From positions 1-64,000 of the forward strand of contig CAWVRN010000025.1 of the NCBI GenBank assembly GCA_963932905.1: a stretch of DNA of 64,000 nucleotides, given 5' to 3'. Of the stretch, positions 3-59,796 are shown piece after piece. Below the pieces are notes generated by a model that searched no databases, was not told the origin of the DNA, and was given only the letters and a program-made list of their open reading frames with translations. The position numbers and the translations under genes were made by a program. Position 1 is the stretch's first letter, and each line of letters starts with the position of its first letter. The stretch is from an uncultured Bdellovibrio sp. (GTDB lineage: Bacteria; Bdellovibrionota; Bdellovibrionia; Bdellovibrionales; Bdellovibrionaceae).

Positions 3-239
3 TATAAAGGTCGAGCAAGCGCCATTGTGGGTCAAGGTGAGTTGAAGAAGGTTGGTTTTGACCCGTTGTTTGCGATTAACCATACGTGCGCGACTTTAAG
101 AGCTAGGACTTGTAGATTGATCCGAAGAACTTGGTGTACTACGAAGAAGCCGGAAATGCTTAAATTACATTTGGCGATAGTGTGTCTTCATCATAATTTG
201 AATTTAAAGAAATTAAATCTCCCCTTAGCTGCAGCCTAA
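3..239 (+). CDS. C-terminal end of a putative IS1-like transposase, running off the left edge
   Basis: Frame is open from position 3 (YKGRASAIVGQGELKKVGFDPLFAINHTCATLRARTCRLIRRTWCTTKKPEML...). The LR..RLxRRTxCxxK segment resembles the IS1 InsB C-terminus. The stop codon lies inside a terminal inverted repeat. Confidence 0.6.
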   Translation, partial: YKGRASAIVGQGELKKVGFDPLFAINHTCATLRARTCRLIRRTWCTTKKPEMLKLHLAIVCLHHNLNLKKLNLPLAAA

Positions 240-250
240 GGGGCCAGTTC
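224..250 (+). repeat. Right terminal inverted repeat (27 bp) of the left-edge element
   Basis: cttagctgcagcctaaggggccagttc matches the MITE right TIRs (29680-29706, 59770-59796) at 25/27 positions. Confidence 0.9.
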
Positions 251-251
251 T

Positions 252-1334
252 TTAATTAAGCGTGTACGTCAATCCCAGCATCCAAGCCAATGCATAGCTT
301 CGTAAATGTGTTCCAAAAGATTGAACTAATTCATAACGATAATTCAACCTCCAGCGAGTATCCAGATAATAGAAATAGTGAGGATTTGCTTGCGGAACAA
401 CGATGAAATTTTCTTCAACTGGCCATTTCGTTGATTTTGATTGGGCTAAAAATCCCAAGCCTAAATCGATTCGATTGTTAGCGCGCCAAAACAATCGACC
501 TCCGCCACGAAATCCTGTCCAAACAACACGGCGTTCGTAGTAATCACCAGCGTCCTTGGTTCCGGCTTGTGCATTTCCTGTTGCTGCCCCCACGTTGACG
601 GCGAATCCCCAACGTTCACGGTAAACCGTGTAATCGTAGTTAAATGAAATACCAAAATAATGAGTATTGCCTTCAACTAAACCTTTCGTTGTGAGGTTGG
701 TAAGCTTCATTGTTTCATACCAGGTAGTGTAATCCACTGTGAAACCATGACGGTTTTTAAATTTTCCTGTAGGGTCACCGATTAAATCAATAGAGCTTTG
801 AGCGTCTGAGGTGGCAGCGGCTTTGTTTGTCGGTGGTGTTGCTATTGGTTGCGGTGCCGGCGCCACCGGGCGTGTCGTTGGAACTGCGACTGGTGGCTGC
901 GTTGGCGCTGAGCCTGGGGCTGGCGCTGGGGGTGGAGTGGTTGGTAGTGGTGCTGCGGTTGTGGGAACTGGCTTACGGGCCGCTGGGGCCGCCTGTTGCG
1001 GCAATGAGCTTTTTGCAGCGGGTGCCGCCTGCTGAGGTGCTACTTGTTTGACTGGAGCCGACGGCCGAGGTGCTGTTTGTTTTGGTTGCGCCACTGGGCG
1101 CTGTGCCGGCGCGACTCGTTGGGCGGGGGACGCAGGACGTGCCGGTGGCTTTTGTGCTGGCTTAACTGCTGGCTTTTGTACAGTTTTTTTTGCTGGTGGC
1201 GACTGTTGAGGTTGTTTCGGTTTGGTCGGCGGATTTAAATCGATATCAATATATTGTTGAGCCACGCTCGTTTGCGGCCATGCTAGGCTAAGGCTCATTA
1301 CAATAATTAAGAAAACAAATTTAAAATCCATCAC
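252..1334 (-). CDS. Exported protein with a long Pro/Ala/Gln-rich linker and a C-terminal outer-membrane beta-barrel
   Basis: Signal peptide, about 140 aa of low-complexity sequence, then alternating aromatic beta-strands ending LGLTYTLN. Confidence 0.65.
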   Translation of the reverse strand: MMDFKFVFLIIVMSLSLAWPQTSVAQQYIDIDLNPPTKPKQPQQSPPAKKTVQKPAVKPAQKPPARPASPAQRVAPAQRPVAQPKQTAPRPSAPVKQVAPQQAAPAAKSSLPQQAAPAARKPVPTTAAPLPTTPPPAPAPGSAPTQPPVAVPTTRPVAPAPQPIATPPTNKAAATSDAQSSIDLIGDPTGKFKNRHGFTVDYTTWYETMKLTNLTTKGLVEGNTHYFGISFNYDYTVYRERWGFAVNVGAATGNAQAGTKDAGDYYERRVVWTGFRGGGRLFWRANNRIDLGLGFLAQSKSTKWPVEENFIVVPQANPHYFYYLDTRWRLNYRYELVQSFGTHLRSYALAWMLGLTYTLN

Positions 1335-1340
1335 TCTATC

Positions 1341-2504
1341 CTATAATGATAAATGCAGTTGTGTTTGAATCGACCACGAATCGCCCACTACCGTTTCATC
1401 CGATAAATCGCGACCATTGACTACGGTAAAACGAAACTCTGTTTTTAAATAAGGGAATGCGAGTAAACCAAATGTCCATTTTAAATTATCTGGAGATTGT
1501 GTCGATAGTGTTTGATTGTAGTATTCAATTTGTGACAAGAAGAAGTAGCCACGTTTAATCAGCGCCATACTTTGTGCCATTCCATAGCCGCCTGTTTTTC
1601 CTGAACCGCTCTTTGGTTTATTCATGATAATACCGGCTTCCGTTAATAAACTGTTACCTTTGCCGTAACCAAATTTACTATGAGCCGCCATACGTGTCCA
1701 ATTCACATAGTCATTTTCAGACAACATGAAAGATCCACCCAGACGGAAATATTGATGTATGTCTCTTTCTGTCATGAACGAGAAACCTTTTTGGCGCTGA
1801 TCTGAGTTTTGCGCTAGGTTTCCCATAAATATATGAGGTGTAAATTCCCATGGTTCCTTGCGATAGATCGCCATCACGCCGTATGTTTGATCGTTTTGCG
1901 CAACACCCACTTTAGCGCGAGAGTATGCGGTGTGGTCCACGATGCGAATACCGTAGGCTTTGTCCATTAAACCGACAAACCAAGTCAGGTTGTCGTTTTT
2001 CATCCACCGGAAGTAGTGTTCGCGTGATAAAAATTCAGACGGTTTGTTAGGATCATTTTTTAAATTCTCTGGAACTGGGTAGTAACCATAGCTGCCAATA
2101 AGTGCATATTTCTGATCTTGATCAAATAATAAAGCCACGCTCGCATCGGCCTGCATGTTAATGAATTTCTTCATCGTGCCTTCGCTACCTGGGTTTGTTT
2201 GGAACCATAGTCCGCGGTATTTAAAACCTGGACGCAGCCACCAGGGTAGTTGTTTTTTACCTAAGAAACCACTCTTTTGCGAAAGCTCGTCGTCCGTAAT
2301 TTTTGCATCCATGTAACCTTTAGAGACGATTTCAGATGCGAAAACACCACGACCGTAATCAGTCAGGGGTCCATTACCGTGCCCGTTGAAGTGACAAAGC
2401 ATGCATGAACTATAACCGTAGCCAATAAAGTCCGGATACGCGGATGCATGTCTGCTGAAAGACATAGATAAAATGAAAAATAACAAGATTCCGTTCAGGC
2501 GCAT
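1341..2504 (-). CDS. Monoheme cytochrome c-porin fusion (Cyc2-like architecture)
   Basis: Likely start ATG 2504. Signal peptide ending ASA, then YPDFIGYGYSSCMLCHFNGHGNGPLTDYGR (CxxCH), then a beta-barrel ending IQTQLHLSL. Confidence 0.65.
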   Translation of the reverse strand: MRLNGILLFFILSMSFSRHASAYPDFIGYGYSSCMLCHFNGHGNGPLTDYGRGVFASEIVSKGYMDAKITDDELSQKSGFLGKKQLPWWLRPGFKYRGLWFQTNPGSEGTMKKFINMQADASVALLFDQDQKYALIGSYGYYPVPENLKNDPNKPSEFLSREHYFRWMKNDNLTWFVGLMDKAYGIRIVDHTAYSRAKVGVAQNDQTYGVMAIYRKEPWEFTPHIFMGNLAQNSDQRQKGFSFMTERDIHQYFRLGGSFMLSENDYVNWTRMAAHSKFGYGKGNSLLTEAGIIMNKPKSGSGKTGGYGMAQSMALIKRGYFFLSQIEYYNQTLSTQSPDNLKWTFGLLAFPYLKTEFRFTVVNGRDLSDETVVGDSWSIQTQLHLSL

Positions 2505-2665
2505 AGGCAAATGATTCTTTAAACCTAGACCAAAATCAAGAAATAGTTGCGGATTTCTCAAGATGAAGGTCGTGTATTTCGGTTTTGCCTATCTGGACCT
2601 CAAGAAAACTTCGGTTTTTCTCGATGAGGCAAATGAAAAGAAAGCTTAAAAGCAAAGAGGAGACT

Positions 2666-4327
2666 ATGTCTTTCAACTACGATAAGCACAAAAATCATCA
2701 GGATGACGGTCATTTTTGGACGTCCTACTCTGACTTATTCTTGGGTCTTTCTACGATTTTCCTTCTGTTGTACGTAACTTCTTCATTGAAGACGAACACA
2801 TCGGGAATGAAGCAAGAAATGGAAAAGCAAAAGCTAACCATGGAAGTGCAAGATCTTAAGAATCAGTTAAAAATGTATGATTCTATTAAAAAAGAATATC
2901 TTAAAAAAGAGGCATCTCAAACAGAGGCGGATCAATACGCTGAGTTAATGGATAAGCTGACTTTGCTTAAAGAAGAAGCAAAAGACGAGAAAGATCGTTT
3001 AAGACAAGCGGCCAAGGAAAACGAAAAGAAAGAAGAAGCGCTTAATCAATATCAACAAATGGTTCGTAATATCGTTAATGCCAACGTTCTATCGAAAACT
3101 AAGATCAAGAAGCGTGATGATATTATCGATGAGCAGGATGACACGATCGTGTCACAAGAGGAGCAGATTTCGTCTTTGAATCAAGAAGTCGACAACAAGA
3201 AAAAGTTGATTGCTGAAAACGAGATGAAGATCGCCAAAGCCCAAGAACAACTGGAAGATAAAATGTCTGAGTTGAAAGACGCTTTGAAAAACAAAGAGAT
3301 CTCTAAAAAAGCATATGAACAAAAACTGCATGCTTTACAAAATGAGAATCAAAGCAAGATTGATCAATTGAATGAGCAAATCGCAAGCAGCGAGAAAGAT
3401 CTTAAAAACTCGCAGGCGCGTTTAGGTCAGTTGTCTTCTGATTTAGCAAAAACTCAGGGCGAGTTGAATGTTAAAAATATGGAAGTCGGCGACCTGAATA
3501 AAAAACTGAGTTCGATCGAAGGTGAGTACAATCAAAAGATGAATGCAATGAAGGGGCAATTCGAAGCCGAGAAAGCGGCGGACAAGGCAAAGCTTGAAAA
3601 CGAACTTCGTGGTGCGAAACTCAGTGCAGCTGAAAAAGCAAAACGTTTGGGCGAATTCGAAGCCAGTGCGAAAGCTAAAGAAAAAGAATTGGGTGATAAA
3701 CTGGCGGGTATGGCGAAAGACTTAGGTCAAAAAGAAAAAGAACTTAAGGCAGCCATGGCAGAACGAGATTTGCGTAAAGACGTAGCGAACGAAATTAAAA
3801 AAGGTTTCGAAAAAGCGGGTGTAAAAGCAGACATCGATTTGCAAACGGGTGAAGTTATGCTTGATTTCGGGGACGCGTATTTCGAAACGGATTCAGCGAA
3901 ACTGAATGGCGATATGAAATCTATCCTAGAAAAAGCTATGCCAGTTTACGCAAAATCATTGTTTGGTAACGATAAAGTAAAAGATAAGATCTCGGCCGTG
4001 GAGATCGTGGGTTTTGCGTCACCAACATATGGTGGTAAATTCGTAGATCCAAAATCATCAGCTAAAAAAGATAAAGAAGCATTAAAATACAATATGGATT
4101 TAAGTTATAAACGTGCGAAATCGATCTTCAGTCATATTTTAGATGATAAGACGATGGAGTTCGAACATCAGAAGGATATGTATCCGGTAATGAAAGTATC
4201 GGGACGTTCCTTCTTGGAAGTTATGAAAGTTAAAGATGTCAAGCCAGGCCAGGATTTCTGTAAAGCTAATGACTGTAAGAAATCTCAGCGTGTCGTGATT
4301 CGTTTTAGTATGGATGGAAAAAAATAA
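2666..4327 (+). CDS. MotB/ZorB-like protein: TM helix with conserved Asp, long coiled coil, OmpA-like peptidoglycan-binding domain
   Basis: FWTSYSDLFLGLSTIFLLLYV; C-terminal FETDSAKL...EIVGFAS...NMDLSYKRA...QRVVIRF. RBS gaggag before ATG 2666. Confidence 0.8.
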   Translation: MSFNYDKHKNHQDDGHFWTSYSDLFLGLSTIFLLLYVTSSLKTNTSGMKQEMEKQKLTMEVQDLKNQLKMYDSIKKEYLKKEASQTEADQYAELMDKLTLLKEEAKDEKDRLRQAAKENEKKEEALNQYQQMVRNIVNANVLSKTKIKKRDDIIDEQDDTIVSQEEQISSLNQEVDNKKKLIAENEMKIAKAQEQLEDKMSELKDALKNKEISKKAYEQKLHALQNENQSKIDQLNEQIASSEKDLKNSQARLGQLSSDLAKTQGELNVKNMEVGDLNKKLSSIEGEYNQKMNAMKGQFEAEKAADKAKLENELRGAKLSAAEKAKRLGEFEASAKAKEKELGDKLAGMAKDLGQKEKELKAAMAERDLRKDVANEIKKGFEKAGVKADIDLQTGEVMLDFGDAYFETDSAKLNGDMKSILEKAMPVYAKSLFGNDKVKDKISAVEIVGFASPTYGGKFVDPKSSAKKDKEALKYNMDLSYKRAKSIFSHILDDKTMEFEHQKDMYPVMKVSGRSFLEVMKVKDVKPGQDFCKANDCKKSQRVVIRFSMDGKK

Positions 4328-4336
4328 TTAAAGGAG

Positions 4337-5272
4337 ATGGATATGGGATCAAAAACAATGGCTGAATATTTTATTCTCAGCTTACCTTATTTCATGGGAG
4401 CCATTTTCATGTTAGGTGCGTTCTTGCGCTTCATGATTTGGTACACAGTAAAAAGACATGAATGGTTTGCTCGTGAATTTGAAAAACGAGTGGCTCAATA
4501 CATGGAATCGCAAGTTCCAGGGCAGTCAACTAAGCAATCATTTTATGTGTTGTCTAAGAAAATTTTAGAAAGAACATATTATGAAGCCTTTGAGGTTCGT
4601 GATCGTATGATGCGTCGTCAACGCGATAAAGTTATGCGTTGGTCAGATCGTATTTGGTTAGTTAAGCAAGGTTGTGCTTGGCTAGTAAAAGACATTTTAA
4701 AACAATTGAAGTTTTTGAAATGGACAAACGATACGCCAAAACTATTGCACATCACTCGTGCTACGTTCCATCATAACCCATGTTTCAACCGTGTGTTTGG
4801 AGTTTTTCCAATATCTGGGTTAAATGACATCGTTTCGATTCTTCCTGGTTTGTTCGTGGTTGCGGGTATCTTGGGTACATTCATTGGTATCGCTAAAGGT
4901 CTTCCAGAGTTAGGTAACATGAACCTGGCAGATGCAGATGCGACTAAGAACGTCATGGATCGCTTCTTGTTTGAAATCTCGTTTGCGATGAAATCGTCTA
5001 TCTTTGGTATCGCTTTTTCTTTAGCGTTAAATATGATTAACACGATGTTTTCTCCGGATCGCGTGTTTGTATCAATGGTTGATCGTTTCGAAAGTTCATT
5101 AGATTTAATTTGGTACCGCGCTGATAACAATGACTATCCATCAAATGAAAAACCATTTGATGAACACAAAGACCCACAAGAGGCATTGGCGGAAGAGTCT
5201 ATTAATTTAGAGATCGCTAAAGCCGCTCGTAGTCGTGAGTTAGACGAACTTAAGAAAACAAAAGCTTCTTAA
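4337..5272 (+). CDS. MotA/ZorA/ExbB-like proton channel subunit
   Basis: N-terminal TM plus LPGLFVVAGILGTFIGIAKGL and ISFAMKSSIFGIAFSLAL, typical of the MotA/TolQ/ExbB/ZorA TM pair. True start may be 4343 or 4358. Confidence 0.75.
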   Translation: MDMGSKTMAEYFILSLPYFMGAIFMLGAFLRFMIWYTVKRHEWFAREFEKRVAQYMESQVPGQSTKQSFYVLSKKILERTYYEAFEVRDRMMRRQRDKVMRWSDRIWLVKQGCAWLVKDILKQLKFLKWTNDTPKLLHITRATFHHNPCFNRVFGVFPISGLNDIVSILPGLFVVAGILGTFIGIAKGLPELGNMNLADADATKNVMDRFLFEISFAMKSSIFGIAFSLALNMINTMFSPDRVFVSMVDRFESSLDLIWYRADNNDYPSNEKPFDEHKDPQEALAEESINLEIAKAARSRELDELKKTKAS

Positions 5273-5283
5273 CGTGTAGTTTC

Positions 5284-5308
5284 GCCTACGGCGAAGACGT
5301 AGGCTTTT
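5284..5308 (+). terminator. Possible intrinsic terminator
   Basis: gcctacg-gcgaaga-cgtaggc-tttt. Confidence 0.45.
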
Positions 5309-5363
5309 GTAGTGACCCCTGTTGCGATGGGGGTCTAATAGAAAAGCTTTATAAGGGAATAAA

Positions 5364-8300
5364 ATGGCCAAGAGTATACAGGTATTTATAGTGACGATAC
5401 AGCAGGGCGAAGACGTCGACTACAAAATAGTTGACGATAGCTCGTTTACGGTTGGTCGCTCTTTGGACGCAACAATTGCATTTGGTGACCCGGATATCAG
5501 TCGTATCCACCTGATCGTGACCTTAAAGCATGATCGTATTTGGATTGAAGACCAAGGGTCTGCCAATGGTACATTTGTAAACGATCAAAAAATTCCAGCT
5601 CAAAAAACGGTCAGTGTTGAACCTGGCGATAAAGTCAAAGTCGGTAAATCAGAAATTTACCTATCGTTCAATCTATTAGAAAAATGCTTCAGAAAAGAAG
5701 AAATCGTTAGAAGCCAATTACCTAAAGACGAAAAAGACGGTTTACTGCGTTTGATTCAAGGGGCTCACGCCGAAGCACAAAAAATCGTAAAACTAGCTCA
5801 AGATAGTCATGACAAATTAGTTAAAATCGCTGAAAACAAAGCAGCGGGTATTGAAAATGCTACGTTGTTGAAGCAAGATGAAATTTTACAAAACGCATCT
5901 ATGCAGTCGCAGCAAATTCTTCAAGATGCCAAACGCAAAGGCGTGGGCGTTATCAATGAAGCGCAAGAAGACGCCCAGAAAAAAGTTCAAGAAATATATG
6001 AAAAAGCCAACAGCTATAAAAAAGAGGCTGATGACTATTATAAAAATAAAATCGAAGAAGCTCAAGGTGATGCAGAACGCGTTCTGAAAGAGAATGAAAA
6101 TCTATCTAATAAAATTGTTGAAGAAGCCCGCGAGAAAGTCACTGTTATGCGTGAATTTGCACAACGCGAGTTAGATCAATTTAAAAATAAATCACTATTA
6201 GAGATCGAAGAACTAAAGAAAACAATATTAAACGATGCCGAGAAAGAAAAAGAGCTTTTGTTGCAACGTACAGAGCGTGAAGCGCAAAAGAAAGTACAGT
6301 CTTTAATAAAAGAAACTGAAGAAAATAATAAGCTTGAACACGATAAAATGATCTTGAATGCTAAAAACGAGATCGATCAAATTAAAAAAGATTCGTCTAG
6401 TGATATTGAGCGTTTAAAAGACCAAATCTCGACATTGCAGATTGATATAAGAAAATTCACTGTTGAAGTGAAGGATTTGGAAGAAGAAAAGAAGCTTCTA
6501 ATGCTTCGTTATGAAAAAGAAGAGATCGAACGTCGTAAATCTTTTGAAGATGAGTTGAAAGCTAAAGATGATGCTTTGGAAAAACAGCTGGCTGAAAAAC
6601 GCACTGATTTTGAAGATAGACTTAAAAAACGTCAGGAATTGGCAGAGAAAGATATTTCTGCGCGCTATATGGATTTAGAGCTTGAAGAAGAACGCAAAAA
6701 TAAAGAATTGGCTGAATTTCATAGTGGTCTGAAGAAAAAAGAAGATGAATTCTGGGCCAAGCTTAAAATCGATCGTGAATTCAAACTTAAAGAGCTTGAA
6801 GAGCGCGAAAAGAATTTGACTGATTATGAATCTAAAATCAAAAAAGATACGAATGACTGGGTTGTGGAAACTCGAGCCAAACACGAGGCTGAATGGAATG
6901 AACGGGAAGCCGTCGTTAAGAAGCTGGAAAAAGATAAGCAAGAGGAGTTGGCTATATTTGAAAAGTCCACCAAAGAACGTACTTTGGCTTGGGAGTCTGA
7001 ATTAAGATCCAAGACGACGGCTTGGGATGCTGATTTGCGCGCTAAAACAGCAGAGTGGGATGCAGACCTGCGATCTAAAACAAATTCGTGGGAAGTTGAA
7101 ACGCGCACGAAAAATGAAAAAGATTGGAATGCACGTGAGCTTGAACTTAGAAATCTAGAGTCACAAAAACGTGTCGAGCTGCAAAAGTGGATTGAATCTG
7201 AACAGGCAAAACGGGAAGGTGATTGGAAAGATCGCGAAGTTAAGCTAGCTAATGCGGAATCCGTTAAAGAAAAAGAGTTGGATGCATGGGCTAAGGAAAA
7301 ACAGCAGGAGTTTTTCACTAAAAATAAAAATTTAGTGGAAGAAAACGGATTGCTAGAGACTCGAATTGCTGAATTAAAAACTGTTTATGGTAAGTTGCAA
7401 AGCGACCATGAAGTATTGAAGGCTGAGAATGAAAAGACGAAAACAGATACACAAATGTTTTCGTCTCAGATGATTGACTTGAAGAAAGAAGTCAGTTTGT
7501 TGATTCAGAATCGGGATCAGCTGGTTTCTGATTCAAAATCGTATGAAAAACGACTTGGCGAGATGAAGTTTGAAATAGATAATCATGCGAACAAGCTTGA
7601 CGGGTTGAAAAAAGAATTTGAAGGTCAAAAAGCGCAACATCGTACGCAAGTAGAGATGGAAAAAACGCAAATGACAAAAGATATGTACGAGCAAGTGAAT
7701 CAGTTAAAGTTGCTTGAACTTGAAAAGATGAAAGGTTTAAAAGAGGACCTGTTGTCAGAGTTGCATAAGACAAAAGAGCGTCTATCGAAAGAGATTCACC
7801 AGCAAGTTGAAAAAGCACTTGTGGGCAGTATCCCGGTGGAAAAACTGAATGCGTTATCTAATGTCGTATTGGCGAAAATCCAGTCAACGTTAGAGGAGCA
7901 AACGGCTCATATTGCTCTCAGTGCGAATGATGATGGTAATCAATTAACGGCAGATACGAAAACAGTACTTAAGAAACAAAAACGAGAACGTTTCCAACAA
8001 ATGGTCATGGGTTTTGTTATCGGTGCGATCAGTATCGGTATTTTGCAAGCGACGTATTTAAAGGTGTCTAACAATTTAAATCCAGTTAAAGATTTAATTG
8101 CAGAGCAAGCGGCGGAAGCGAAAAAGGATATGGAAGCTAAAAAGTTCAATCCTAAGCGCGAGCCTGAGGTTAAAGACTCGTATGTAGATTTAGTTCTGTA
8201 CACCGATCAATTCTATGAAATGTACTTAAGTCCGGACTTTAATGAAAAATTCGGTAAAGCCACAATGGAGTATTTACTGCGTACTTGGAGAATCGAAGAA

Positions 8301-8588: not shown

Positions 8589-8650
8589 GGCGCTAGGTAA
8601 GCAGATGCTATAAAACTGTCAGACCGATCAGTTTACAAAAAATTCGATAC

Positions 8651-8682: not shown

Positions 8683-8726
8683 GAGTACCGTTTGTGGGGC
8701 TTTTAAATCAGAGCATCATAATAAAA

Positions 8727-8765: not shown

Positions 8766-8785
8766 CCTTTAAATTAAGGGAGGTT

Positions 8786-29444: not shown

Positions 29445-29446
29445 TA

Positions 29447-29706
29447 GAACTGGCTCCTTAGCTTGCGGCTAAGAAGCTAAATTTTATTGGAAAGACAGTT
29501 GTTTAGTTGAAATTTAAAAGGGCTGTCTTGAAACAGTTTTTCAAAAGAAAAATTATTATCCGAATTAACTCGTAATACATTCGAGTTTCGATCCCTCAAA
29601 AAAAGCGAGCGTGTTGAATCTTTCTGGATTTTAGATAGCACGTTTTAAATTCACTTGATTTGACGATATTTTACTTGGCCTTAGCCGCAGGCTAAGGGGC
29701 CAGTTC
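29447..29706. mobile_element. MITE-like element, copy 1 (260 bp, 27-bp TIRs)
   Basis: gaactggctccttagcttgcggctaag ... cttagccgcaggctaaggggccagttc; about 10 substitutions and no indels relative to copy 2. Confidence 0.9.
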
Positions 29707-29709
29707 AGT

Positions 29710-50653: not shown

Positions 50654-51484
50654 ATGAAATGGAAAGGAATATTTGTTTTACTTTGGATACTATTTACCAC
50701 TTCGATGATCGGCTGGTGGTGGTTCTATGGTATTGAACAGTTATCCGTTCCTGCGGAAGTCCTTGATTTTGAAAAACGTCGCCGCATGCTATTCTGGGAA
50801 GGATCATTTTTCTTGTTAGCTCAAGTCCTAGGCGGCATGATGATGTTTTATTTTATGAAGCGAGAAGAAAAAAAGAATAAATCCATCCGCAATTTCTTTG
50901 CTGGTTTTTCACATGATTTAAAGACGTCGATATCTAGACTCAGACTACAAAGTGAAGTGTTGAGCGAAGATGAAAAATTTAAAAACAATAAGCAAATTGT
51001 TCGTTTAGTAAAAAACATTAATCAACTGGATTTGCAGCTAGAAAACTCGTTGTGGATGTCGCAACTTGATAGCATCAAGACCTTGAAAGAAAGTTTTCCT
51101 ATTTCAAAGTTGATCAGCGGCATCAAAAATGAGTTTCAGGAAGTCACAATTGAGTTAAACAAAGATCAAAATTTGGAAACAGATTACCGAGCTTTGTATT
51201 TTATATTTCGTAACTTGATTCAAAATGCACTCATTCATGGTGGTTCAAGTCGTATTGAAATTAAAATCGATGAAGCGGGCTCGCAAAAGTTGATTACCCT
51301 AGTCGATGATGGTGTTGGTGTTCAGGAAAAGTTGTCCGTCAGCGATGTCATTCATTTTCGATTCAACGACAAGAAAACATCGGGTATCGGTTTGTACTTA
51401 TGTTCCGAAATTATTAAAAAATTGAATGGGCGATTAGAATTCTTTAATCCCAAGCAAGGCTTTGGAGTGAAAATCTACCTATGA
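50654..51484 (+). CDS. Two-TM sensor histidine kinase
   Basis: SHDLKT, NLIQNALIHG, DDGVG, SGIGLYL. Confidence 0.9.
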   Translation: MKWKGIFVLLWILFTTSMIGWWWFYGIEQLSVPAEVLDFEKRRRMLFWEGSFFLLAQVLGGMMMFYFMKREEKKNKSIRNFFAGFSHDLKTSISRLRLQSEVLSEDEKFKNNKQIVRLVKNINQLDLQLENSLWMSQLDSIKTLKESFPISKLISGIKNEFQEVTIELNKDQNLETDYRALYFIFRNLIQNALIHGGSSRIEIKIDEAGSQKLITLVDDGVGVQEKLSVSDVIHFRFNDKKTSGIGLYLCSEIIKKLNGRLEFFNPKQGFGVKIYL

Positions 51485-52164
51485 AAAAGATTTTAATCGT
51501 CGAAGACGACTTAACATTAGGTGAAACACTTAAAGAACGTCTTGAACAAGATTTCGAAGTGGTTTGGGCTGCTAATCAGGCTCAAGCCGTTAAAAGGATT
51601 TCAGAGAACGAGTTTGATTTAGTGATTTTAGACATAGGACTTCCGGATGGTGATGGGTTTCAGGTCGCTAAACACCTAAACAAATCAAAAAGCAGTATCT
51701 TATTCCTAACTGCCCAAAGTGATGCGGAAAACCGCTTGCAAGGCTATGAGCTGGGCGCCGAAGAATTTATTCCAAAGCCATTTCATTTAAAAGAACTCAT
51801 GATTCGTATTCGTCACGTACTGACAGATCACTCTGTGAAACCGCATAGGCTGAACGTCGATGGGATCGAAGTTGATTTTAATCAAATGTCAGTACGTAAA
51901 CGTGACGGGACTATCGAATACCCCGCACAATCTGATCTGAAGATTGTTGAATTTCTTATTAAAAAATCGCCGCAGCCAGTGACTCGTGATGAAATCATGG
52001 ATTTTGTCTGGGGTCAGGATAAGAACGTAAATATTCGCAGTATCGATAATGCGATTGTCAGAATTAAAAAGTTTTTAGATTTAAATAACGATGATGTAAT
52101 TAGAAACGTCCGAGGAATCGGCTACCAGTGGACTTCCACAGATAGGATTAAAAATGAATATTAA
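51481..52164 (+). CDS. OmpR-family response regulator
   Basis: IVEDD, LDIGLPDGDG, KPF, NVRGIGY. Confidence 0.93.
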   Translation: MKKILIVEDDLTLGETLKERLEQDFEVVWAANQAQAVKRISENEFDLVILDIGLPDGDGFQVAKHLNKSKSSILFLTAQSDAENRLQGYELGAEEFIPKPFHLKELMIRIRHVLTDHSVKPHRLNVDGIEVDFNQMSVRKRDGTIEYPAQSDLKIVEFLIKKSPQPVTRDEIMDFVWGQDKNVNIRSIDNAIVRIKKFLDLNNDDVIRNVRGIGYQWTSTDRIKNEY

Positions 52165-53194
52165 TTTTCAAAACGCGATCAACAATGTTCCGCAATCTGT
52201 GCCGCCTATTTGGTTTATGCGCCAAGCCGGTCGTTATCATTCCCATTATCAAGCACTTCGTAAGAAAAATTCATTTATGGATTTATGTCGCCTTCCAGAT
52301 CTTGCGGCCGAAGTTACAATGGGACCAATTCAAGATTTTGATTTTGACGTGGCGATTATCTTTTCAGATTTATTGTTTCCACTTCAAGCTATGGGATTTG
52401 GTCTACAGTACGCAGATGATGGTCCTAAGCTAGATATTCATTTAACTCCGGACGTGATGGGTAAAATCACTCCGTTTGAAGAGGCTTGGCCACAGCTGAT
52501 GTTCCAAAAGAAAGCTTTGGAATTAGCTCGTAAACGATTACCAGGAAACAAATCATTAATTGGCTTCGTGGGTGGCCCTTGGACTTTGTTTGTGTACGCT
52601 GTGGAAGGCTCACATAAAGGCAGTTTAACATTATCTAAAAAATATTTGCCTTTGTATCCGCAGTTTTGCGCAAAATTAATTCCGTTACTTAAAAAGAATA
52701 TTGAATTGCAATTAGAGGGCGGTGCGGAAGTCGTGATGTTGTTTGATACTGCGGCTGGCGAGATCGATCCGCTGCTGTATTCTCAATTTATCATGCCTCA
52801 ATTGATGGATTTAGCGCAGACATTCCCTAAAAAATTAGCTTACTATTCGAAAGGAACGATGGGTGGCTACTTCCCGAAAGAATTTTTTATGGCGCCGTGG
52901 GCGGGATTAGGTTTCGATCACCGTTGGAATTTGCCTTCACTTTTGAAAAATTTAAACGGCTACAATAATCCATTTTTTGCTCAAGGAAATTTTGATCAAT
53001 CGTTACTTCATCAAGAACCCGCTGATTTTGAAAAATCACTGCGTTTTTATATAGAACCATTTAAAAACATGCCTCCCGAAGAACGCGCTCGCTGGGTCTG
53101 CGGTTTAGGTCATGGTGTTCTTCCGAACACACCCGAACAGAATGTTCGTAAGTTTATCGAAGTCATCAGAAAGGAATTCAGCCATGGTGGCTAG
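52154..53194 (+). CDS. hemE: Uroporphyrinogen decarboxylase
   Basis: PIWFMRQAGRY, FSDLL, GFVGGPWTL, GLGHGVLP. Confidence 0.97.
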   Translation: MNINFQNAINNVPQSVPPIWFMRQAGRYHSHYQALRKKNSFMDLCRLPDLAAEVTMGPIQDFDFDVAIIFSDLLFPLQAMGFGLQYADDGPKLDIHLTPDVMGKITPFEEAWPQLMFQKKALELARKRLPGNKSLIGFVGGPWTLFVYAVEGSHKGSLTLSKKYLPLYPQFCAKLIPLLKKNIELQLEGGAEVVMLFDTAAGEIDPLLYSQFIMPQLMDLAQTFPKKLAYYSKGTMGGYFPKEFFMAPWAGLGFDHRWNLPSLLKNLNGYNNPFFAQGNFDQSLLHQEPADFEKSLRFYIEPFKNMPPEERARWVCGLGHGVLPNTPEQNVRKFIEVIRKEFSHGG

Positions 53195-54539
53195 CTTTAA
53201 AGAGTTATATCGCAAATACGATATTCCGGCTCCACGTTATACCAGTTACCCAACCGTTCCGTTCTGGTCGGAAACGCCCGCGCGTGACGAATGGGTTAAA
53301 CATTTAAGTTCCGCTTTAAACAAAGATCAATCCAGCTGGGCTCTGTATGTTCATTTGCCTTACTGTGAAACGCTATGCACGTTTTGCGGTTGCAACACAT
53401 CGATCACTAAGGATCATTCCAAAGAACGTCCCTATGTAGATCTAGTTATTAAAGAATTAGATTTGTATTTACAACAGGTCCCAGAGCTAAAAACCAAACC
53501 ACTGAAGCAAATTCATTTCGGTGGTGGTTCGCCTACATTTTTCTCGGCCCAGGCATTGGGGTATCTGGTAGATGAAATTGATAAACGCGTTGTACGCCAA
53601 AAAGATCATTTCGAAGGTGCTATCGAGGTAGATCCACGCCGAACTAAAATCGAACAATTGCAGGAACTTAAAAAGCGCGGATTTAATCGCATCAGTCTAG
53701 GCGTTCAAGATTTCGATCCTGAGGTGCAACGGTTAGTAAACCGTATTCAGCCGTTTGAGCAGACGAAACAAGTCACGGACTGGGCGCGCAGTATGGGGTA
53801 CGATTCAGTTAATTTTGATTTGATTTATGGTCTTGCGAAGCAGACGCCAGAATCGATCAAAAAATCGGCCGAGTTAACGGTTGCCTTGAAGCCTGATCGC
53901 ATCGCCTTGTACAGTTTAGCGATCGTTCCTTGGATTAAGCCGGCTCAAAAACTGTTTAAAGACGAAGACCTTCCAAAAGGGGAGGATAAGCGCAAACTAT
54001 ATGAAATTGCGCGCGAGGTATTAACTCAAAATGGATATGTTGAAATCGGTATGGATCATTTTGCTTTAAATACCGATGCTTTGTATGAAAAAACTAAGGC
54101 CAAATCTCTGCATCGTAATTTTATGGGTTACACGGACCAACGCACCGATGTTCTGCTAGGACTTGGGGTTAGTTCTATCTCTGAAACGCCTGATTCATTT
54201 CATCAAAACGAAAAAGTCTTGAATATTTACGAGCAAAAAATTGTTAAGGGTGAAATACCGACTTTGCGTGGCCATGTTTTGACAGATGAAGATAAAACTC
54301 AGCGTCAGAAAATTTTGAAATTCATGACTCAGTTTGAAATTACTTTATCGGATAAAGAAAAATCAGAGGCTCAAGTTTTTTTAAAAGAAATGTTGCAAGA
54401 TAAACTGATCGAGTTCGATGGCTCCACATTGAGGTTAACCGAGCTGGGTAAACCCTTCTTACGTAATGCGGCCTTGTTTTTTGATGCTCGCTTACAACGA
54501 TCGCAGCCGCAAACACGGATTTTTTCGTCGTCGATATGA
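53184..54539 (+). CDS. hemN: Oxygen-independent coproporphyrinogen III oxidase
   Basis: PRYTSYPT, HLPYCETLCTFCGC, RNFMGY. Start 53184 follows RBS aagga. Confidence 0.97.
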   Translation: MVASFKELYRKYDIPAPRYTSYPTVPFWSETPARDEWVKHLSSALNKDQSSWALYVHLPYCETLCTFCGCNTSITKDHSKERPYVDLVIKELDLYLQQVPELKTKPLKQIHFGGGSPTFFSAQALGYLVDEIDKRVVRQKDHFEGAIEVDPRRTKIEQLQELKKRGFNRISLGVQDFDPEVQRLVNRIQPFEQTKQVTDWARSMGYDSVNFDLIYGLAKQTPESIKKSAELTVALKPDRIALYSLAIVPWIKPAQKLFKDEDLPKGEDKRKLYEIAREVLTQNGYVEIGMDHFALNTDALYEKTKAKSLHRNFMGYTDQRTDVLLGLGVSSISETPDSFHQNEKVLNIYEQKIVKGEIPTLRGHVLTDEDKTQRQKILKFMTQFEITLSDKEKSEAQVFLKEMLQDKLIEFDGSTLRLTELGKPFLRNAALFFDARLQRSQPQTRIFSSSI

Positions 54540-55735
54540 TTCGCATTATAGGTGCTGGGTTTTCCGGTCTTTCTTTAGCTTATTTTTTCACAAAGCTTGG
54601 CTACCCGGTGACAGTCATTGAGAAAAATAGTCGGACAGGTGGAGTTATCAGTTCAGAATATAAAAATAATATGCTGATTGAATCAGCTGCCAATGGTTTT
54701 TTGGCGTCTGAAAAACTGGAAGATATGTTTGCCGATATTGGCGTTCAGGCTCTAGTGCCTAAGTCAGAATCTCGGAAAAAGTATATCTTTCGAAATGGAC
54801 TACGGCGTTGGCCTTTATCGCTTGATGAAACAGTTGTACTTGTTGGACGAGCTGTCTTTGCTTTTATTTCTGGTAGATCAAAGCCACGCGAAGATGAAAG
54901 CTTAAAGGATTGGGCTCAGCGAGTTTTGGGTTTAGCGGGAAATGATTATCTGATTCAACCAATGGTTAATGGCATTTTCGCTCAAAAAACAGAAATCCTC
55001 AGCGCCAAGATGGTCTTGGGGTCGATGTTTTTTAAGAAGAAACGGAAAACCTTGAAAGGTTTAATCAGCGCACCCAATGGAATGGGAGAAGTAATACAAA
55101 AATTAGAAAGCTATTTAAAGATCAAAGGTGTTCGATTTGAACTATCGACCGACGAAAAAATGCACTCGAGTGTTTTGCAACATAATACTTTTTTAGCAAC
55201 AGACCTCTTTTCTGCAAAATCTTTCTTCGCTATGTCGAACACAAAACAGCCAGAAATAAAAAAAGATGATCTGACTTGCCTCTCTCTGGTTCGTGTGACA
55301 TTGAATTTTAAAAATCAGGTAAATCAGATCGATGGATTCGGGGTTTTGTTTCCAAATAAAGAGAAGTTTTTTACATTGGGCGTTTTAGCTAACTCAAAAA
55401 TTTTCGAAAATCGAGGAGACTACAATGAAAGCTGGATACTGGGCGATTCGGTTTTACCTGATTTAATGAATTTATCGGATGATCAGATTATCGAGAAAAT
55501 AAAACAAGATCGATTGCGCCTTTTCCCGCAAGCAATTGAAATCAAAGACGTGTCTATTCATCGCTGGAAAGAGGTTGTTCCTTGTTATGACCATCTTTTA
55601 CAGCGATTTTTGAAAGAAAATGCAGCTTTAACGTCGAATTTAGCGGGAAATTATCTGGGTGTACTAGGTTTAACGGGTATTCACGAACGAAATTCACAAA
55701 TTGCCAGTGCGTATGCAGAAAGAAATAAAAAATGA
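54536..55735 (+). CDS. hemY: FAD-dependent protoporphyrinogen oxidase (HemY type)
   Basis: IIGAGFSGL, EKNSRTGG, GFGVL, LAGNYL; between hemN and hemH. Confidence 0.82.
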   Translation: MIRIIGAGFSGLSLAYFFTKLGYPVTVIEKNSRTGGVISSEYKNNMLIESAANGFLASEKLEDMFADIGVQALVPKSESRKKYIFRNGLRRWPLSLDETVVLVGRAVFAFISGRSKPREDESLKDWAQRVLGLAGNDYLIQPMVNGIFAQKTEILSAKMVLGSMFFKKKRKTLKGLISAPNGMGEVIQKLESYLKIKGVRFELSTDEKMHSSVLQHNTFLATDLFSAKSFFAMSNTKQPEIKKDDLTCLSLVRVTLNFKNQVNQIDGFGVLFPNKEKFFTLGVLANSKIFENRGDYNESWILGDSVLPDLMNLSDDQIIEKIKQDRLRLFPQAIEIKDVSIHRWKEVVPCYDHLLQRFLKENAALTSNLAGNYLGVLGLTGIHERNSQIASAYAERNKK

Positions 55736-56772
55736 AGATGGGTGTGATTTTAAATAATATTGGTTCTCCGGATGCGCCCGATACAAAATCAGTTCGTCGC
55801 TATTTACGCGAATTTTTGATGGATCCTGGGGTGATTGAGTTACCGTTTATTTTTAGATTTATTTTGGTTTATCTGATTATTACTCCGTTTCGGGCCCCAA
55901 AATCGGCAGCGAAATATCAGAAAATATGGACCCAGGCGGGTTCGCCATTGGTTTCGATCACGGAATCGATCGCACGTAAACTTGAAAAATATAGAAATAC
56001 ATTCAGTGTGGAATCAGGAATGGTATTTCAAAACCCATCGCTGCTGACGGCGATTAAAAAGCTTCAACAGAGAAATCCAGACTTAGAAAAAATCTATTTT
56101 ATCCCTATGTATCCACAGTTTTCCGTCGCAACGACGGAAGCCAGCGAAAAAAAATTCAAAGACGTATTTGAGAAAAATAAAAATAAAATTTTTAAAAATT
56201 CTAAAGCTCCAGAGATCTACACTCTGAAGCCTTTCTACGATCATGCGAGCTTTATCCAGAATACAGTTGAAAAAATTAAAACATTCGATTTAGACACGTA
56301 CGACACTATCTTGTTTTCGTATCATGGATTGCCAAAGTCAGCGATTTTAAAAAATCCGCATTGTAGGCTTGATACTAAATGCTGTGAAACGGGAATGAAA
56401 AAGAATTGCTATCGTAGTCAGTGTTTTGAAACGACTCGTTTGATTAATATTAAGTTAAATTTAAATTTAAAAACCGCATCCGTCACGACATTTCAATCAC
56501 GTCTAGGTCCTGCGGAATGGATTAAACCTTATACCGATGAAATATTGGTCCAGCTAGCTCAGCAAAATAAGAAACGTGTTTTGGTTGTTTGCCCGGCTTT
56601 CACTGTCGACTGCTTAGAAACGCTTGAAGAAATTCAACTTGAAAACCGCAAAGCCTTTATGAATGAGGGCGGTGAGGCGTTTGACTACGTTCCGTGTTTA
56701 AACGATGACGATCAATGGTGTCAGGACCTGGCCACGCTGATTGAAGATCAGTCTCAGTTCACACAATTATAA
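55732..56772 (+). CDS. hemH: Ferrochelatase
   Basis: GSPD, PMYPQFS, FSYHGLP, FQSRLG, DCLETLEE, PCLND. Confidence 0.97.
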   Translation: MKMGVILNNIGSPDAPDTKSVRRYLREFLMDPGVIELPFIFRFILVYLIITPFRAPKSAAKYQKIWTQAGSPLVSITESIARKLEKYRNTFSVESGMVFQNPSLLTAIKKLQQRNPDLEKIYFIPMYPQFSVATTEASEKKFKDVFEKNKNKIFKNSKAPEIYTLKPFYDHASFIQNTVEKIKTFDLDTYDTILFSYHGLPKSAILKNPHCRLDTKCCETGMKKNCYRSQCFETTRLINIKLNLNLKTASVTTFQSRLGPAEWIKPYTDEILVQLAQQNKKRVLVVCPAFTVDCLETLEEIQLENRKAFMNEGGEAFDYVPCLNDDDQWCQDLATLIEDQSQFTQL

Positions 56773-56825
56773 GCTAGAACTTGGTCTAGTATTTAAGGCT
56801 GACGGAGCCAATCTATCGTCGAACT

Positions 56826-56852
56826 TAAAGTTTTCTCATTTTAAACCGATAT
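56826..56852 (+). promoter_or_regulatory. Sigma28 (FliA)-like promoter
   Basis: TAAA-N15-ACCGATAT. Confidence 0.6.
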
Positions 56853-56886
56853 AAATTATGTAAAAATAATATTAAATGAGGATATT

Positions 56887-59001
56887 ATGCCAAAATACGT
56901 TTTAAATTCGCTTCTAGCCGGAGTTTTTTCTATTACTTTTTCTGCGGCTCCTTATGCACACGCAGCAAATGATAAGTCTCCGGTTAATCAGGTTAAAACA
57001 TTTATTAAAGACTCTAAAATAACGACAACTAAATCGTATCCTGAACTGTTTGCAAAACTGCAAAAGCAAAACTCGAAAGTAAACCCTCTGGTGTTCAAGC
57101 AGATCGCAGAAGCGATGTCGGGTGAAAAATTCCCCAACATTCAAGTTCAAGAATTCACGTACAAAGGCAAAGAAGCTTTAAAAGTCATGCTTAACATGAG
57201 CGGCGAGCAAGTGGTTATTGAATACTTGTTCCACGGCGATGAAGTGATGAAGATCAATGGTACTGTTTTTAAAACCGCTGATACGACTTCATCTGAAGCT
57301 TTTGATGCTAAGTTAAAAACAATTGAAGTGTTCCATAAAATCTACCAACAGTTCCAAAAGAAAGTTTTCAGTGCCGCTACCGTTCCCACTCTGCAACAAT
57401 GGAACAAATTAACTAAAGCTCAACGTGCAGAGTTCTTCTTGCGTCATCGTCAATTACTTGAAGCTGCATACAAAGTTCACAACACGGGGCGATTTAAAGT
57501 AATTTCGGCCAATGAAAAAACATTCGACCAATGGGTTCAATCTACGTTCCTAGGTAACGAGGCGTATGCCGGTCGCGCAGAGGGAACAATTGGCGGCACC
57601 CCAGCCGGTGATAAACCAGCAAAACCTCCAGGAGCAACCGATGTACAAGCGCAGCAAGAAGCCGCTGTTGTTGAGGGCGCGAAAAAACTCACTGCTAGCA
57701 TGGGCAATATGGATCCCTTTGTCGACAATGAGGATAAAACCAGGGGGCCTAGTTGTATAGTTGCCGGACATGCTCGAAAATGGAAAAATAGTGCCTGTCC
57801 ATGGGATGGCGGAAGCGAAGCATCCAAAAAAAAATTCTATGAGGAAGAGGATCCACTCTCGAAAGAATGTTTAACAAAAGGCCCTGACGGAAGAGGCGGC
57901 AAGGGCTGGATAGCTTGTAAAGCAGTAGTTTACGGTTTTAGCGGGAAAGAAAACAATAACAGACCTTACTGCATAGATACTAACCAAAAAACTGGTACGA
58001 AAGAAAATTTTAATTTTGCTACACACGGTGATGGCCCATGCGAAGCTTTGTCACCGCTAAAAACGCCACAAGACAAAATGAAATTTATAAAAAACATTTT
58101 AGACCGTGAAGCAATACCTGGTGGAGACACCTTAAAATGCAAAGACACCAATGGTAAACTTAAGGAGTCCAAAGATTGCAATAATCAAGACAAATTGGTA
58201 ACTACGGATCCAGATCTTTTTAAAAGAATCATGGGTGAGCTAAGTGGACCGATTGCAAAGTATATTAACTCAGCAGAAAAAATCTGTGAGAAAAAAGCGG
58301 GAAAGTGGAACTACAAAGCACCAAATCCACCAAGCGGAAAATCTACTAAGAAAGATCCGGCCTACCAAGATGAGGCGTGTGATGCGTTAATGAAACGTGC
58401 CATCGCGGTTCAGAACTTGTTAACAACTGAAGAAACAAAACCAGCAGATCCAGTTCTTGCGGGTCCATGTTCTGGTTGGACACCGGCTGATGGTGTAGAA
58501 GAAGTGACTGGTTCAAATGGTACCAAAACCTGCGGTTGTAAAAACAAAGACAAATGCCGTATGGATACAGCGAACAAAGCATGCCTTCCTTTGGATACGC
58601 CAGCGCCGGGCGGCGAAGAAGTAGCCGATTTAGCAAAACCTGAAACGATTAAGGATGGAGCCGATTGCGGTAGTTTCTGGACTCGCATGAATCCAATGGT
58701 GAGCGAATGCTCTTCTACAAGCGGAGATTGGTTTAAAACTATACTTGGTGTACTAGGGGGTATCTGCTTAACAAATGCCGTGTTCGACACCCACATCACG
58801 GGATTGTGCACAAACAAACGTAAAACGGCTTCGACACCAACATACACAGATCCGGCGGTTCCTTGCCCAGCAACGGGTTGTCCAACAACGACTCCAACGA
58901 CTCCAACGACCCCAACAACTCCTACTGAGCCTCGCACCTCAGAAGAAACGACGAACCAAAGCACTCCGGTGTATAACCCGTTTCAGGTTCCACCGAGATA
59001 A
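56887..59001 (+). CDS. Secreted Cys-rich hypothetical protein with a Thr-Thr-Pro repeat tail
   Basis: Signal peptide ending AHA, many Cys, a hydrophobic segment, and TTPTTPTTPTTP near the C-terminus. Confidence 0.8.
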   Translation: MPKYVLNSLLAGVFSITFSAAPYAHAANDKSPVNQVKTFIKDSKITTTKSYPELFAKLQKQNSKVNPLVFKQIAEAMSGEKFPNIQVQEFTYKGKEALKVMLNMSGEQVVIEYLFHGDEVMKINGTVFKTADTTSSEAFDAKLKTIEVFHKIYQQFQKKVFSAATVPTLQQWNKLTKAQRAEFFLRHRQLLEAAYKVHNTGRFKVISANEKTFDQWVQSTFLGNEAYAGRAEGTIGGTPAGDKPAKPPGATDVQAQQEAAVVEGAKKLTASMGNMDPFVDNEDKTRGPSCIVAGHARKWKNSACPWDGGSEASKKKFYEEEDPLSKECLTKGPDGRGGKGWIACKAVVYGFSGKENNNRPYCIDTNQKTGTKENFNFATHGDGPCEALSPLKTPQDKMKFIKNILDREAIPGGDTLKCKDTNGKLKESKDCNNQDKLVTTDPDLFKRIMGELSGPIAKYINSAEKICEKKAGKWNYKAPNPPSGKSTKKDPAYQDEACDALMKRAIAVQNLLTTEETKPADPVLAGPCSGWTPADGVEEVTGSNGTKTCGCKNKDKCRMDTANKACLPLDTPAPGGEEVADLAKPETIKDGADCGSFWTRMNPMVSECSSTSGDWFKTILGVLGGICLTNAVFDTHITGLCTNKRKTASTPTYTDPAVPCPATGCPTTTPTTPTTPTTPTEPRTSEETTNQSTPVYNPFQVPPR

Positions 59002-59003
59002 TT

Positions 59004-59537
59004 TTGGATATCATTCGCGAGCCAGTTAGGTCAGGCAGCAAGTCAACTCTCACTGATAAATCCGCTAACCAGCGGATTTATCACGAGTTGGGTTTCCATA
59101 GTGGCTCTAGGAAGCGCCAAGGCCGCAGACTTATTGAATTCCAAATATTAAGCGCACTGGTAGATTCGTTATTAATTTTAGCCATGAGCCTACTCGTTTG
59201 TTTTTTGTATTTGGTTTCACTAAAAACAGACCTCGTTCGTATATTACCGCACCAAATTTATTTCGCTGAATTATTTGGCGTGATTTTTCTATGGATTCAG
59301 TTTTGTTATCTTGTCGTCTTAAGAACATTTGGCGGAGCTACGTTTGGTGAAAAAGTTTTTGATGTCCGCCTAGGAATCTTTCAAGAACGTTATCTTTTGT
59401 CGTACCCATTTCGAGTGATTTACAGAACGTTCATTATTTATCTTTGCGGAATCGTTGTGTTACCAATTCTTTCTTGGTTTTTCAAACGTGACTTAGCGGG
59501 CGAAATTTCGGGCTTAAAGCTGACTTCAAACGTCTAG
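59004..59537 (+). CDS. RDD family membrane protein
   Basis: ALVDSLL, GATFGEKVFDVRL, RDLAGEISG. The TAG stop is completed by the first base of the MITE. Confidence 0.7.
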   Translation: MDIIREPVRSGSKSTLTDKSANQRIYHELGFHSGSRKRQGRRLIEFQILSALVDSLLILAMSLLVCFLYLVSLKTDLVRILPHQIYFAELFGVIFLWIQFCYLVVLRTFGGATFGEKVFDVRLGIFQERYLLSYPFRVIYRTFIIYLCGIVVLPILSWFFKRDLAGEISGLKLTSNV

Positions 59538-59796
59538 AACTGGCCCCTTAGCTTGCGGCTAAGAAGCTAAAATCTACTGGAAAGACAGTCGTTTAGTTGA
59601 AATTTAAAAGCGCTGCCTTGAAACAGTTTTTCAAAAAAAAAATTATTATCCGAATTAACTCGTAATACATTCGAGTTTCGATCCCTCAATAAAAGCGAGC
59701 GTGTTGAATCTTTCTAGATTTTAGATAGCACGTTTTAAATTCACTTGATTTGACGATATTTTACTTGGCCTTAGCCGCAGGCTAAGGGGCCAGTTC
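59537..59796. mobile_element. MITE-like element, copy 2 (260 bp, 27-bp TIRs)
   Basis: gaactggccccttagcttgcggctaag ... cttagccgcaggctaaggggccagttc (TIRs match 26/27); about 96% identical to copy 1. Confidence 0.9.

Follow-up and report, generated by a model that had tools for sequence, protein, structure and literature searches.

Some groups of the IS1595 family of insertion sequences (IS) carry asparagine or histidine in place of the catalytic glutamate of the transposase. IS1 elements generate target duplications of 8 or 9 bp, according to excerpts of one account (PMC12428005). Excerpts of Ngan et al. 2024 (PMC11708052) describe adjacent deletions as a classic outcome of IS activity, and report IS movements that were accompanied by deletions or duplications and left no target duplication. 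Here we analyse a 64-kb stretch of DNA from an uncultured Bdellovibrio sp., hereafter the window, which is the first 64 kb of contig C25 in a 4.55-Mb, 58-contig short-read assembly (genome G000). It carries part of an IS of ~990 bp, IS-A, which we place in a branch of the IS1 superfamily, and two copies of a 260-bp non-coding MITE (miniature transposable element with inverted repeats) that IS-A would mobilise in trans, a reading to which we assign a probability of roughly 80%. Such an IS and MITE are in themselves a known kind of mobile-element pair. The less ordinary features are the placement at stop codons, the near absence of MITE duplications, gene-sized deletions and fixed 9-bp junctions, the last three of which may be products of the transposase. 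The literature on Bdellovibrio IS and MITEs, on the IS1 family and on IS1595 yielded no published description of either element; a named ISfinder entry may exist.

The elements are tied together by a 27-nt terminal repeat with five matches in the window at ≤ 3 mismatches (0 expected from 100 shuffles; Table 1). A first-pass annotation had reported two 260-bp elements differing by about 10 substitutions and no indels, and these align over 260/260 positions at 96.15% identity, with 10 mismatches and 0 gaps. The repeat that it saw on the end of an IS1-like open reading frame (ORF) at 224-250 matches at 25/27 positions, and its palindrome, CTTAGC-N5-GCTAAG, is found in all four MITE ends of the window. 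Because the window starts at the contig start, bases 1-250 are only the tail of an IS whose interior is unassembled. ORF 3-239 in this fragment encodes the C-terminal 78 codons of the transposase and runs into the terminal repeat, with its TAA stop (237-239) inside the 3' arm of the right-end hairpin. The same 250 bp also begin contigs C17, C51 and C9, so that four contigs share a start 250 bp from the right end, and the coding part of the fragment is 94% identical to the C-terminus of a 305-aa ORF in a genome of the same genus.

Genome-wide, a search with the 14-nt core of the repeat (≤ 2 mismatches, end types sorted by eye) gave 114 hits, 101 of which are element ends. They comprise 40 MITE left ends, about 39 MITE right ends, 10 left and 11 right ends of IS-A (mostly at contig termini) and 4 ends of a second, related IS, IS-B. 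The family thus reaches far beyond the two copies first noticed, with ~40 MITE ends of each kind; the counts correspond to about 40 copies of the MITE and about 10 of IS-A. Twenty MITE copies are complete (257-260 bp, mean pairwise identity 96.7%, each 2-11 changes from the consensus), and further ends lie at contig termini. The MITE interior contains no transposase coding, as tblastn with the transposase finds nothing there. Over its first 22 bases, the MITE right end agrees with that of IS-A at 21/22 positions and with the IS-B ends at 20/22. MITE and IS copies stand at most contig ends and probably explain most contig breaks. Searches of nine other genomes of the genus matched no copy of the 260-bp MITE, only bits of terminal repeat.

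The left end that was missing from the window turned up at C2:289747 in G000 and in a full-length element of a same-genus genome. It has only GAACTGGCCCCTTA in common with the right end. The proposal that a 27-bp hairpin-containing terminal repeat defines the family therefore holds for the IS right end and fails for the left, where agreement stops after 14 bases and a hairpin is lacking; both MITE ends accordingly resemble the IS right end. An active transposase may be encoded in G000, to judge from the 94%-identical relative.

Several other copies of these elements were noted. Two internally deleted IS-A copies keep both ends, or the right end, along with fragments of the zinc-ribbon and C-terminal coding parts, and look intermediate between IS and MITE. 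IS-B has hairpins at both ends and the beginning of a transposase ORF (MIHIKCPRC...); there are at least 2 copies, all cut by contig ends. A truncated MITE, consisting of the first 120 bases, lies inverted ~840 bp from a full copy, and a metagenome assembly of the same strain has a slightly different flank there.

The full transposase is the 305-aa ORF of the 990-bp element in the same-genus genome. A single ORF encodes a zinc ribbon (C9, C12, C46 and C49 conserved), a helix-turn-helix (HTH; residues 59-114) and a core (119-303). In the AlphaFold model (predicted local distance difference test, pLDDT, 77), a beta ribbon at the N-terminus and a helical HTH region precede a core ordered beta1-beta2-beta3-alpha-beta4-alpha-beta5. 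Structurally it comes closest to the ISCth4 transposase (Foldseek E 1e-5; VIA Z 11.7), retroviral integrases, Mos1, TnsB and Mu, and the HTH and core each match transposases or integrases at Z 8-11.7. The DDE-fold enzyme postulated in the first-pass annotation is supported by this RNase-H-like fold of DDE transposase type. D128, D207, N253-H254 and R260 are invariant in 23/23 homologues, the set used for the family alignment and profile, and the order of secondary structures suggests a D-D-N catalytic triad (D128, D207, N253) followed by R260. Together with the shared ends, the left end and the full ORF, this fold upholds the earlier notion of an autonomous element with non-autonomous dependants.

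The transposase has no Pfam domain. A protein search returned 4267 homologues (E ≤ 1e-5), none of which carries a Pfam domain among the 120 listed. Confirmed stretches in species genomes number 518, and the 80 that were kept are almost all from Bdellovibrionota; the family is large and nearly confined to this phylum. NF033558 (IS1) is the only NCBIfam model that matches the 305-aa protein (46.9 bits, E 3e-12, residues 37-161), and the nearest named protein-atlas clusters are IS1 transposases, with scores of 0.92-0.96. Fewer homologues match the IS1595 models (NF033547, 2/23 at 8.5e-5; PF12762, 2/23 at 0.042), and 6/23 match the zinc ribbon NF050000. IS-A may be described as a Pfam-less, Bdellovibrionota-centred, distant branch of the IS1 superfamily, with weak membership.

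How the family inserts can be read from its relatives. Across many genomes, 14 of 59 distinct full-length IS copies are flanked by a perfect 9-bp direct repeat; among mismatched flank pairs the rate is 0.1%. The majority of the repeats lie two bases outside AACTGG, which places the element ends one base outside GAACTGG. The MITE bounds given earlier were therefore right about the terminal repeat and one base short on each side (29446-29707 and 59536-59797). The tip base varies: it is A and T in IS-A of G000, G and C in G006, another genome of the genus (as are G003, G008 and G009), and A and A (top strand) in the MITE, in which 19/20 copies have A on each side. The perfect duplications of relatives show that the family inserts with a 9-bp stagger, and the transposase would recognise a terminal repeat of ~15 bp, N-GAACTGGCCCCTTA. 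Among the 58 copies re-examined for stop-codon contact, 40 match at 6/9 positions or fewer, which indicates that copies lacking a duplication are common across the whole family.

The MITE seldom has a duplication. One copy in 20 has a 9/9 match and is a member of a tandem pair, and one more has 7/9. Hidden duplications were sought in the MITE flanks at 8-10 bp with offsets of 0-2, and at 9 bp anywhere within 40 nt, and none was found beyond the tandem copy. When, in an attempt to pair IS-A ends by flank, the 9-mers beside all 101 ends were compared in direct and reverse-complement orientation, clear 9/9 matches occurred only at tandem pairs and at a few AT-rich, low-complexity sites.

Tandem arrangements show a fixed geometry. 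Three abutted right-left junctions exist in G000, all with an 11-nt spacer (tip + 9 + tip). The 9 nt duplicate the left flank of the upstream copy in two cases, and in the remaining one, on C7, they equal the final bases of a C19 gene that itself abuts another MITE. A fourth junction, in contigs of run X7, has the left flank of the C7 copy as its 9 nt. A metagenome scan for abutted junctions gave 0 matches. That the 9 bp of a junction equal the left flank of some copy points to a right end attacking 9 bp outside a left end, a reaction that would produce circles or tandem dimers. IS1 circles reportedly have a spacer of similar length.

Contact between MITE ends and host stop codons greatly exceeds chance. 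An inward ORF of at least 80 codons has its stop within -7..+2 of the element at 12/40 MITE sides, and at 4 further sides the ORF ends at a TAG inside the repeat. Both sides make contact in 3/20 copies, including both window copies. As a control, 120,010 random non-ORF positions of the genome gave 4.5% for a single side and 0.36% for both together. At MITE 1, which has no target duplication, the host stops end 2 nt before the core on the left and 3 nt after it on the right. At MITE 2, the left host ORF ends at a TAG made of flank TA and the G of the element, and the right host ORF at a TGA made of the tip base and the GA of the element. As read from both window MITEs, the element termini provide a stop within 15 nt in 2/3 frames on each side.

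The relatives behave alike. A converging stop lies within -12..+3 in 14/14 copies with a perfect 9-bp duplication (21/28 sides) and in 34/40 copies with 6/9 matches or fewer (51/80 sides), proportions that have no control for this interval and ORF length. Since relatives with intact duplications show the same contact, it was set at insertion and not solely by later erosion, and erosion by repeated adjacent deletions was dropped as its sole cause. Contact arises either from target choice or from selection on surviving insertions. Copies lie where genes end, frequently between convergent genes that have hardly any spacer, and their termini supply stops.

Ten MITE loci were checked within the genus, against at most five or nine genomes. 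The comparison of filled with empty sites found the latter at MITE 2 (in G003) and at C4:43538 (in G003 and G008). In the empty state the two convergent stops overlap at both loci (CTAA at MITE 2; TTAA and CTAA at C4:43538), and G006 has the junction of an IS left end at the same place as the right junction of the C4:43538 copy. The C7 pair directly follows a stop codon where relatives have a spacer of 4-14 nt, and the two genes that flank MITE 1 are 64-147 bp apart in relatives. At three loci the MITE stands where relatives hold a gene (Table 1). G000 keeps only the first or last few codons beside the MITE at these three, and the element probably marks three gene losses. Missing duplications and gene-sized deletions could both follow from transposase-mediated adjacent deletion, or from insertion coupled to deletion. 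The remaining three loci were not informative: the flanks of C3:165485 lie on different contigs in relatives, only one flank of C16:4465 was matched, and C29:33721 gave a partial match. At the left junction of MITE 2, G009 carries an IS, and G008 (on C46) a 350-bp MITE-like element whose left end is of IS type and whose right end is decayed.

There is also a sign of movement within the species. At C20:4770-4799, two codons ahead of a stop, the flank is uninterrupted in G000 but joined to a MITE left end in a strain of run X7, and this difference indicates that the element moved. A metagenome scan for left ends gave 33 stretches, all in a single assembly and with flanks 100% identical to those of G000, which makes them the same strain and not independent. 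Summed depth over the MITE is tens of times that of its flanks, a ratio that is not a copy number.

Both ends of the MITE carry the hairpin of the IS right end, and its distribution is narrow. The six right ends closest to IS-A (≥ 62% protein identity) all keep it, and among close relatives its arms covary (TTAGC/GCTAA, CAGCC/GGCTG, TAGCC/GGCTA). In more distant relatives the terminal TAAGGGGCCAGTT persists with the stop codon inside it, and the stem is mostly absent. No family-wide hairpin emerged, as the best perfect stems in 76 right ends resemble those of shuffles. Each of the 80 CTTAGC-N3-7-GCTAAG palindromes of the genome adjoins the GAACTGG motif of the termini, with no standalone case. 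The hairpin belongs to the IS right end, is specific to this lineage and is present twice in the MITE; it is not a unit of the repetitive extragenic palindromic (REP) type. Folded as RNA, the MITE pairs end to end over ~32 bp (z = -9.0), and a right-end-like hairpin at each end (7-8 bp in the lineage) would let its transcript do so. The hairpin could mark the 3' end of an mRNA, hide the stop codon or act as a binding site. A role of the hairpins in termination finds no support; no site resembling an intrinsic terminator occurs in or beside MITE 2. Rfam gave only one, sub-threshold chance match (rliA, 19.7 bits against a gathering score of 50).

Elsewhere in the genome, two ORFs of ~215 aa have weak matches to Y1_Tnp (PF01797), of 35 and 30 bits (C12:65907-66104 and C5:25107-25307). 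The only terminal-motif hits on their contigs are far off (C12:111967 and C5:183240), and the two ORFs share no DNA similarity.

So, how secure is a MITE mobilised by IS-A? A number of observations weigh against it. No intact IS-A is assembled in G000, where transposase residues 95-213 are absent from all contigs save residues 145-163. On the side of family membership, NF033558 matches 23/23 homologues (best E 1.7e-15) with no score seen above its curated cut-off of 100 bits. Pfam DDE_Tnp_IS1 (PF03400) matches 0/23 homologues at E ≤ 0.1 and nothing genome-wide, and likeness to Escherichia coli InsB is undetectable both by hhalign with the 23-sequence profile (probability 0.5%) and by BLASTP (best hit E 0.18 over 7 residues). 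What stands at the presumed third catalytic position is an invariant N253, not E. Plain DDE insertion does not predict 19/20 MITE copies without a 9-bp duplication, and the mean match of MITE flanks is 3.1/9, compared with 3.05 in mismatched pairs. At MITE 2, G000 differs from the empty site of G003 by 2-4 nt with no duplication, and no large deletion explains that copy. No joint skipping MITE 1, and hence no empty allele, was found over 27500-31700 in contigs of four public runs, although contigs cannot show absence. A second assembly of this strain is broken at every one of the 33 left ends present in it, and synteny supports the pairing of left and right flanks at only 6/10 loci checked.

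Should the missing duplications be taken as primary, the MITE copies might not have spread by ordinary transposition at all, having been captured at breaks or deletion junctions or laid over older elements by gene conversion. The 19/20 copies without duplication would then be expected, as would the three copies exactly at gene-sized deletions, and two sites indeed hold different family elements elsewhere (the 350-bp element of G008 and the IS of G009 at MITE 2; the IS end of G006 at C4:43538). The IS movements that Ngan et al. 2024 (PMC11708052) report alongside deletions or duplications, without a target duplication, are likewise compatible. Yet the MITE ends are cut at the same base in 19/20 copies on each side, the abutted junctions have the exact 9-bp spacing of the family, and a 1-kb IS is unlikely to have been converted into a 260-bp MITE by way of ends of 27 bp. 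Moreover, 40/58 IS copies elsewhere are at 6/9 or fewer and 14 are nevertheless perfect, so that one enzyme could give both outcomes. We therefore consider capture or conversion unlikely. A more mundane explanation is that contigs running through a 260-bp repeat join the wrong flanks, which would erase duplications and fake deletions. Many of the 58 contigs do end inside a MITE or IS, the spacer of the C7 tandem pair belongs to a gene on C19, and the breaks at all 33 left ends in the other assembly speak the same way. Against such misjoining, the flanks are adjacent or near and in the same order in relatives at MITE 1, MITE 2, the C7 pair, C4:51928, C4:79602 and C22:60138, none of which has a duplication, and contigs of two other runs extend from each flank of MITE 1 into the element. 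Assembly error is thus a very improbable source of the pattern as a whole.

The first-pass annotation had also entertained a system like REPINs (paired REP sequences that form hairpins) served by a DDE-fold enzyme, and had likened the palindromes to REP/REPIN or IS200/605 ends. In a system of that type the hairpins would be the units recognised, as folded single strands, by a Y1 (HUH) transposase or a REP-associated tyrosine transposase (RAYT), with the DDE protein incidental or a new partner of REP sequences. A palindrome of 6-7 bp does lie within each MITE end, and close relatives retain the hairpin despite changes in both arms (TTAGC/GCTAA versus CAGCC/GGCTG). The genome encodes the two ORFs with weak Y1_Tnp matches (35 and 30 bits), and most MITE copies lack a target duplication, as IS200/605 insertions do. 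This proposal is largely refuted. The hairpin is never alone, with 80/80 palindromes at the GAACTGG motif and 0 standalone; the left end of the IS is free of it; relatives at ≤ 55% identity mostly lack it, in line with the shuffle-like stems of the 76 right ends; and it contains the stop codon of the transposase. The IS family makes 9-bp duplications as DDE elements do, and the Y1-like ORFs lie far from the terminal motifs on their contigs and are mutually unrelated at the DNA level. We regard the chance of such a system as close to negligible, and retain the IS-A and MITE pair as our preferred reading.

A bolder version of the IS-A and MITE pairing, possible but in our view doubtful, is that the IS1-like family, throughout Bdellovibrionota, is a stop-codon-seeking transposon that targets gene ends, often at overlapping convergent stops, and replaces host stops with those of its own termini, and that in this species the MITE is a deletion engine acting through right-end/9 bp/left-end junctions, removing adjacent genes and leaving no duplications. 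If true, a non-coding parasite would shape the ends of genes and streamline the genome. An abundant family without a Pfam model also implies that the annotation of predatory bacteria leaves this transposase as a hypothetical protein. The elements offer a tractable case for how a DDE transposase chooses gene ends and how IS-type elements delete without the usual footprint, given their precise placement at host stops and given that the MITE hardly ever shows the clean 9-bp duplication seen in relatives.

At the start of the window, the host ORF that converges on IS-A has a long middle rich in proline, alanine and glutamine, and a C-terminal part that by eye resembles a beta-barrel outer-membrane domain.

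Table 1. Coordinates of the IS and MITE features and associated loci. Positions without a contig prefix refer to the window.
Feature	Position	Strand	Remarks
Terminal-repeat match	224-250	-	≤ 3 mismatches
Terminal-repeat match	29447-29473	+	≤ 3 mismatches
Terminal-repeat match	29680-29706	-	≤ 3 mismatches
Terminal-repeat match	59537-59563	+	≤ 3 mismatches
Terminal-repeat match	59770-59796	-	≤ 3 mismatches
IS-A right-end fragment	1-251	+	final 250 bp plus tip base at 251; cut by contig start
IS-A right terminal repeat	221-250	+	8-bp stem, 221-228 / 236-243
Host ORF, 360 aa, convergent on IS-A	252-1334	-	stop 252-254 touches the IS tip base
MITE copy 1	29446-29707	+	core 29447-29706 plus one tip base per side
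MITE copy 2	59536-59797	+	core 59537-59796 plus tips
IS-A, internally deleted	C2:289747-290303		
IS-A, internally deleted	C4:1-449		
IS-B left end	C27:64056-64171		
IS-B left end	C53:1-116		
IS-B right end	C3:1-53		
IS-B right end	C49:1-53		
MITE, truncated	C9:96754-96871		inverted
MITE where relatives hold a gene	C4:51928		~1.2 kb
MITE where relatives hold a gene	C4:79602		~0.58 kb
MITE where relatives hold a gene	C22:60138		~1 kb, old-yellow-enzyme-like ORF (by inspection)

With the IS1 family (E. coli IS1 and the single-ORF members covered by NF033558), IS-A shares its small size, an N-terminal zinc ribbon and HTH ahead of a DDE-type core, a transposase ORF that ends within the right terminal repeat, and a 9-bp target duplication; its putative circle or dimer junctions and adjacent deletions also have counterparts there or among IS in general. 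It differs in having one ORF without a frameshift, an invariant asparagine at the presumed third catalytic position, a hairpin at the right end and a strong placement at host stop codons, as well as hidden Markov model scores below the cut-off, no DDE_Tnp_IS1 match and undetectable likeness to InsB. The N-terminal zinc ribbon is shared with IS1595 and is common to IS1 too (NF050000); however, few members match the IS1595 models, whereas the IS1 model matches all 23.

The MITE resembles other bacterial MITEs such as Correia elements and MITEAba12, as presented in excerpts of PMC10969869, in being short and non-coding, with terminal inverted repeats copied from an IS, tens of intergenic copies and a transcript that folds end to end (here z = -9.0). 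Unlike those, nearly all copies lack the target duplication that defines MITE insertions, their ends abut or replace host stops, and both ends derive from the right end of the IS. The closest parallel for the deletions, an element at the centre of a deletion with no duplication, comes from the excerpts of Ngan et al. 2024 (PMC11708052), where full copies of IS150, IS5 and IS481 moved during laboratory evolution. Here, in contrast, the element is non-autonomous and the genome a natural one, with deletions deduced from cross-species comparison only.

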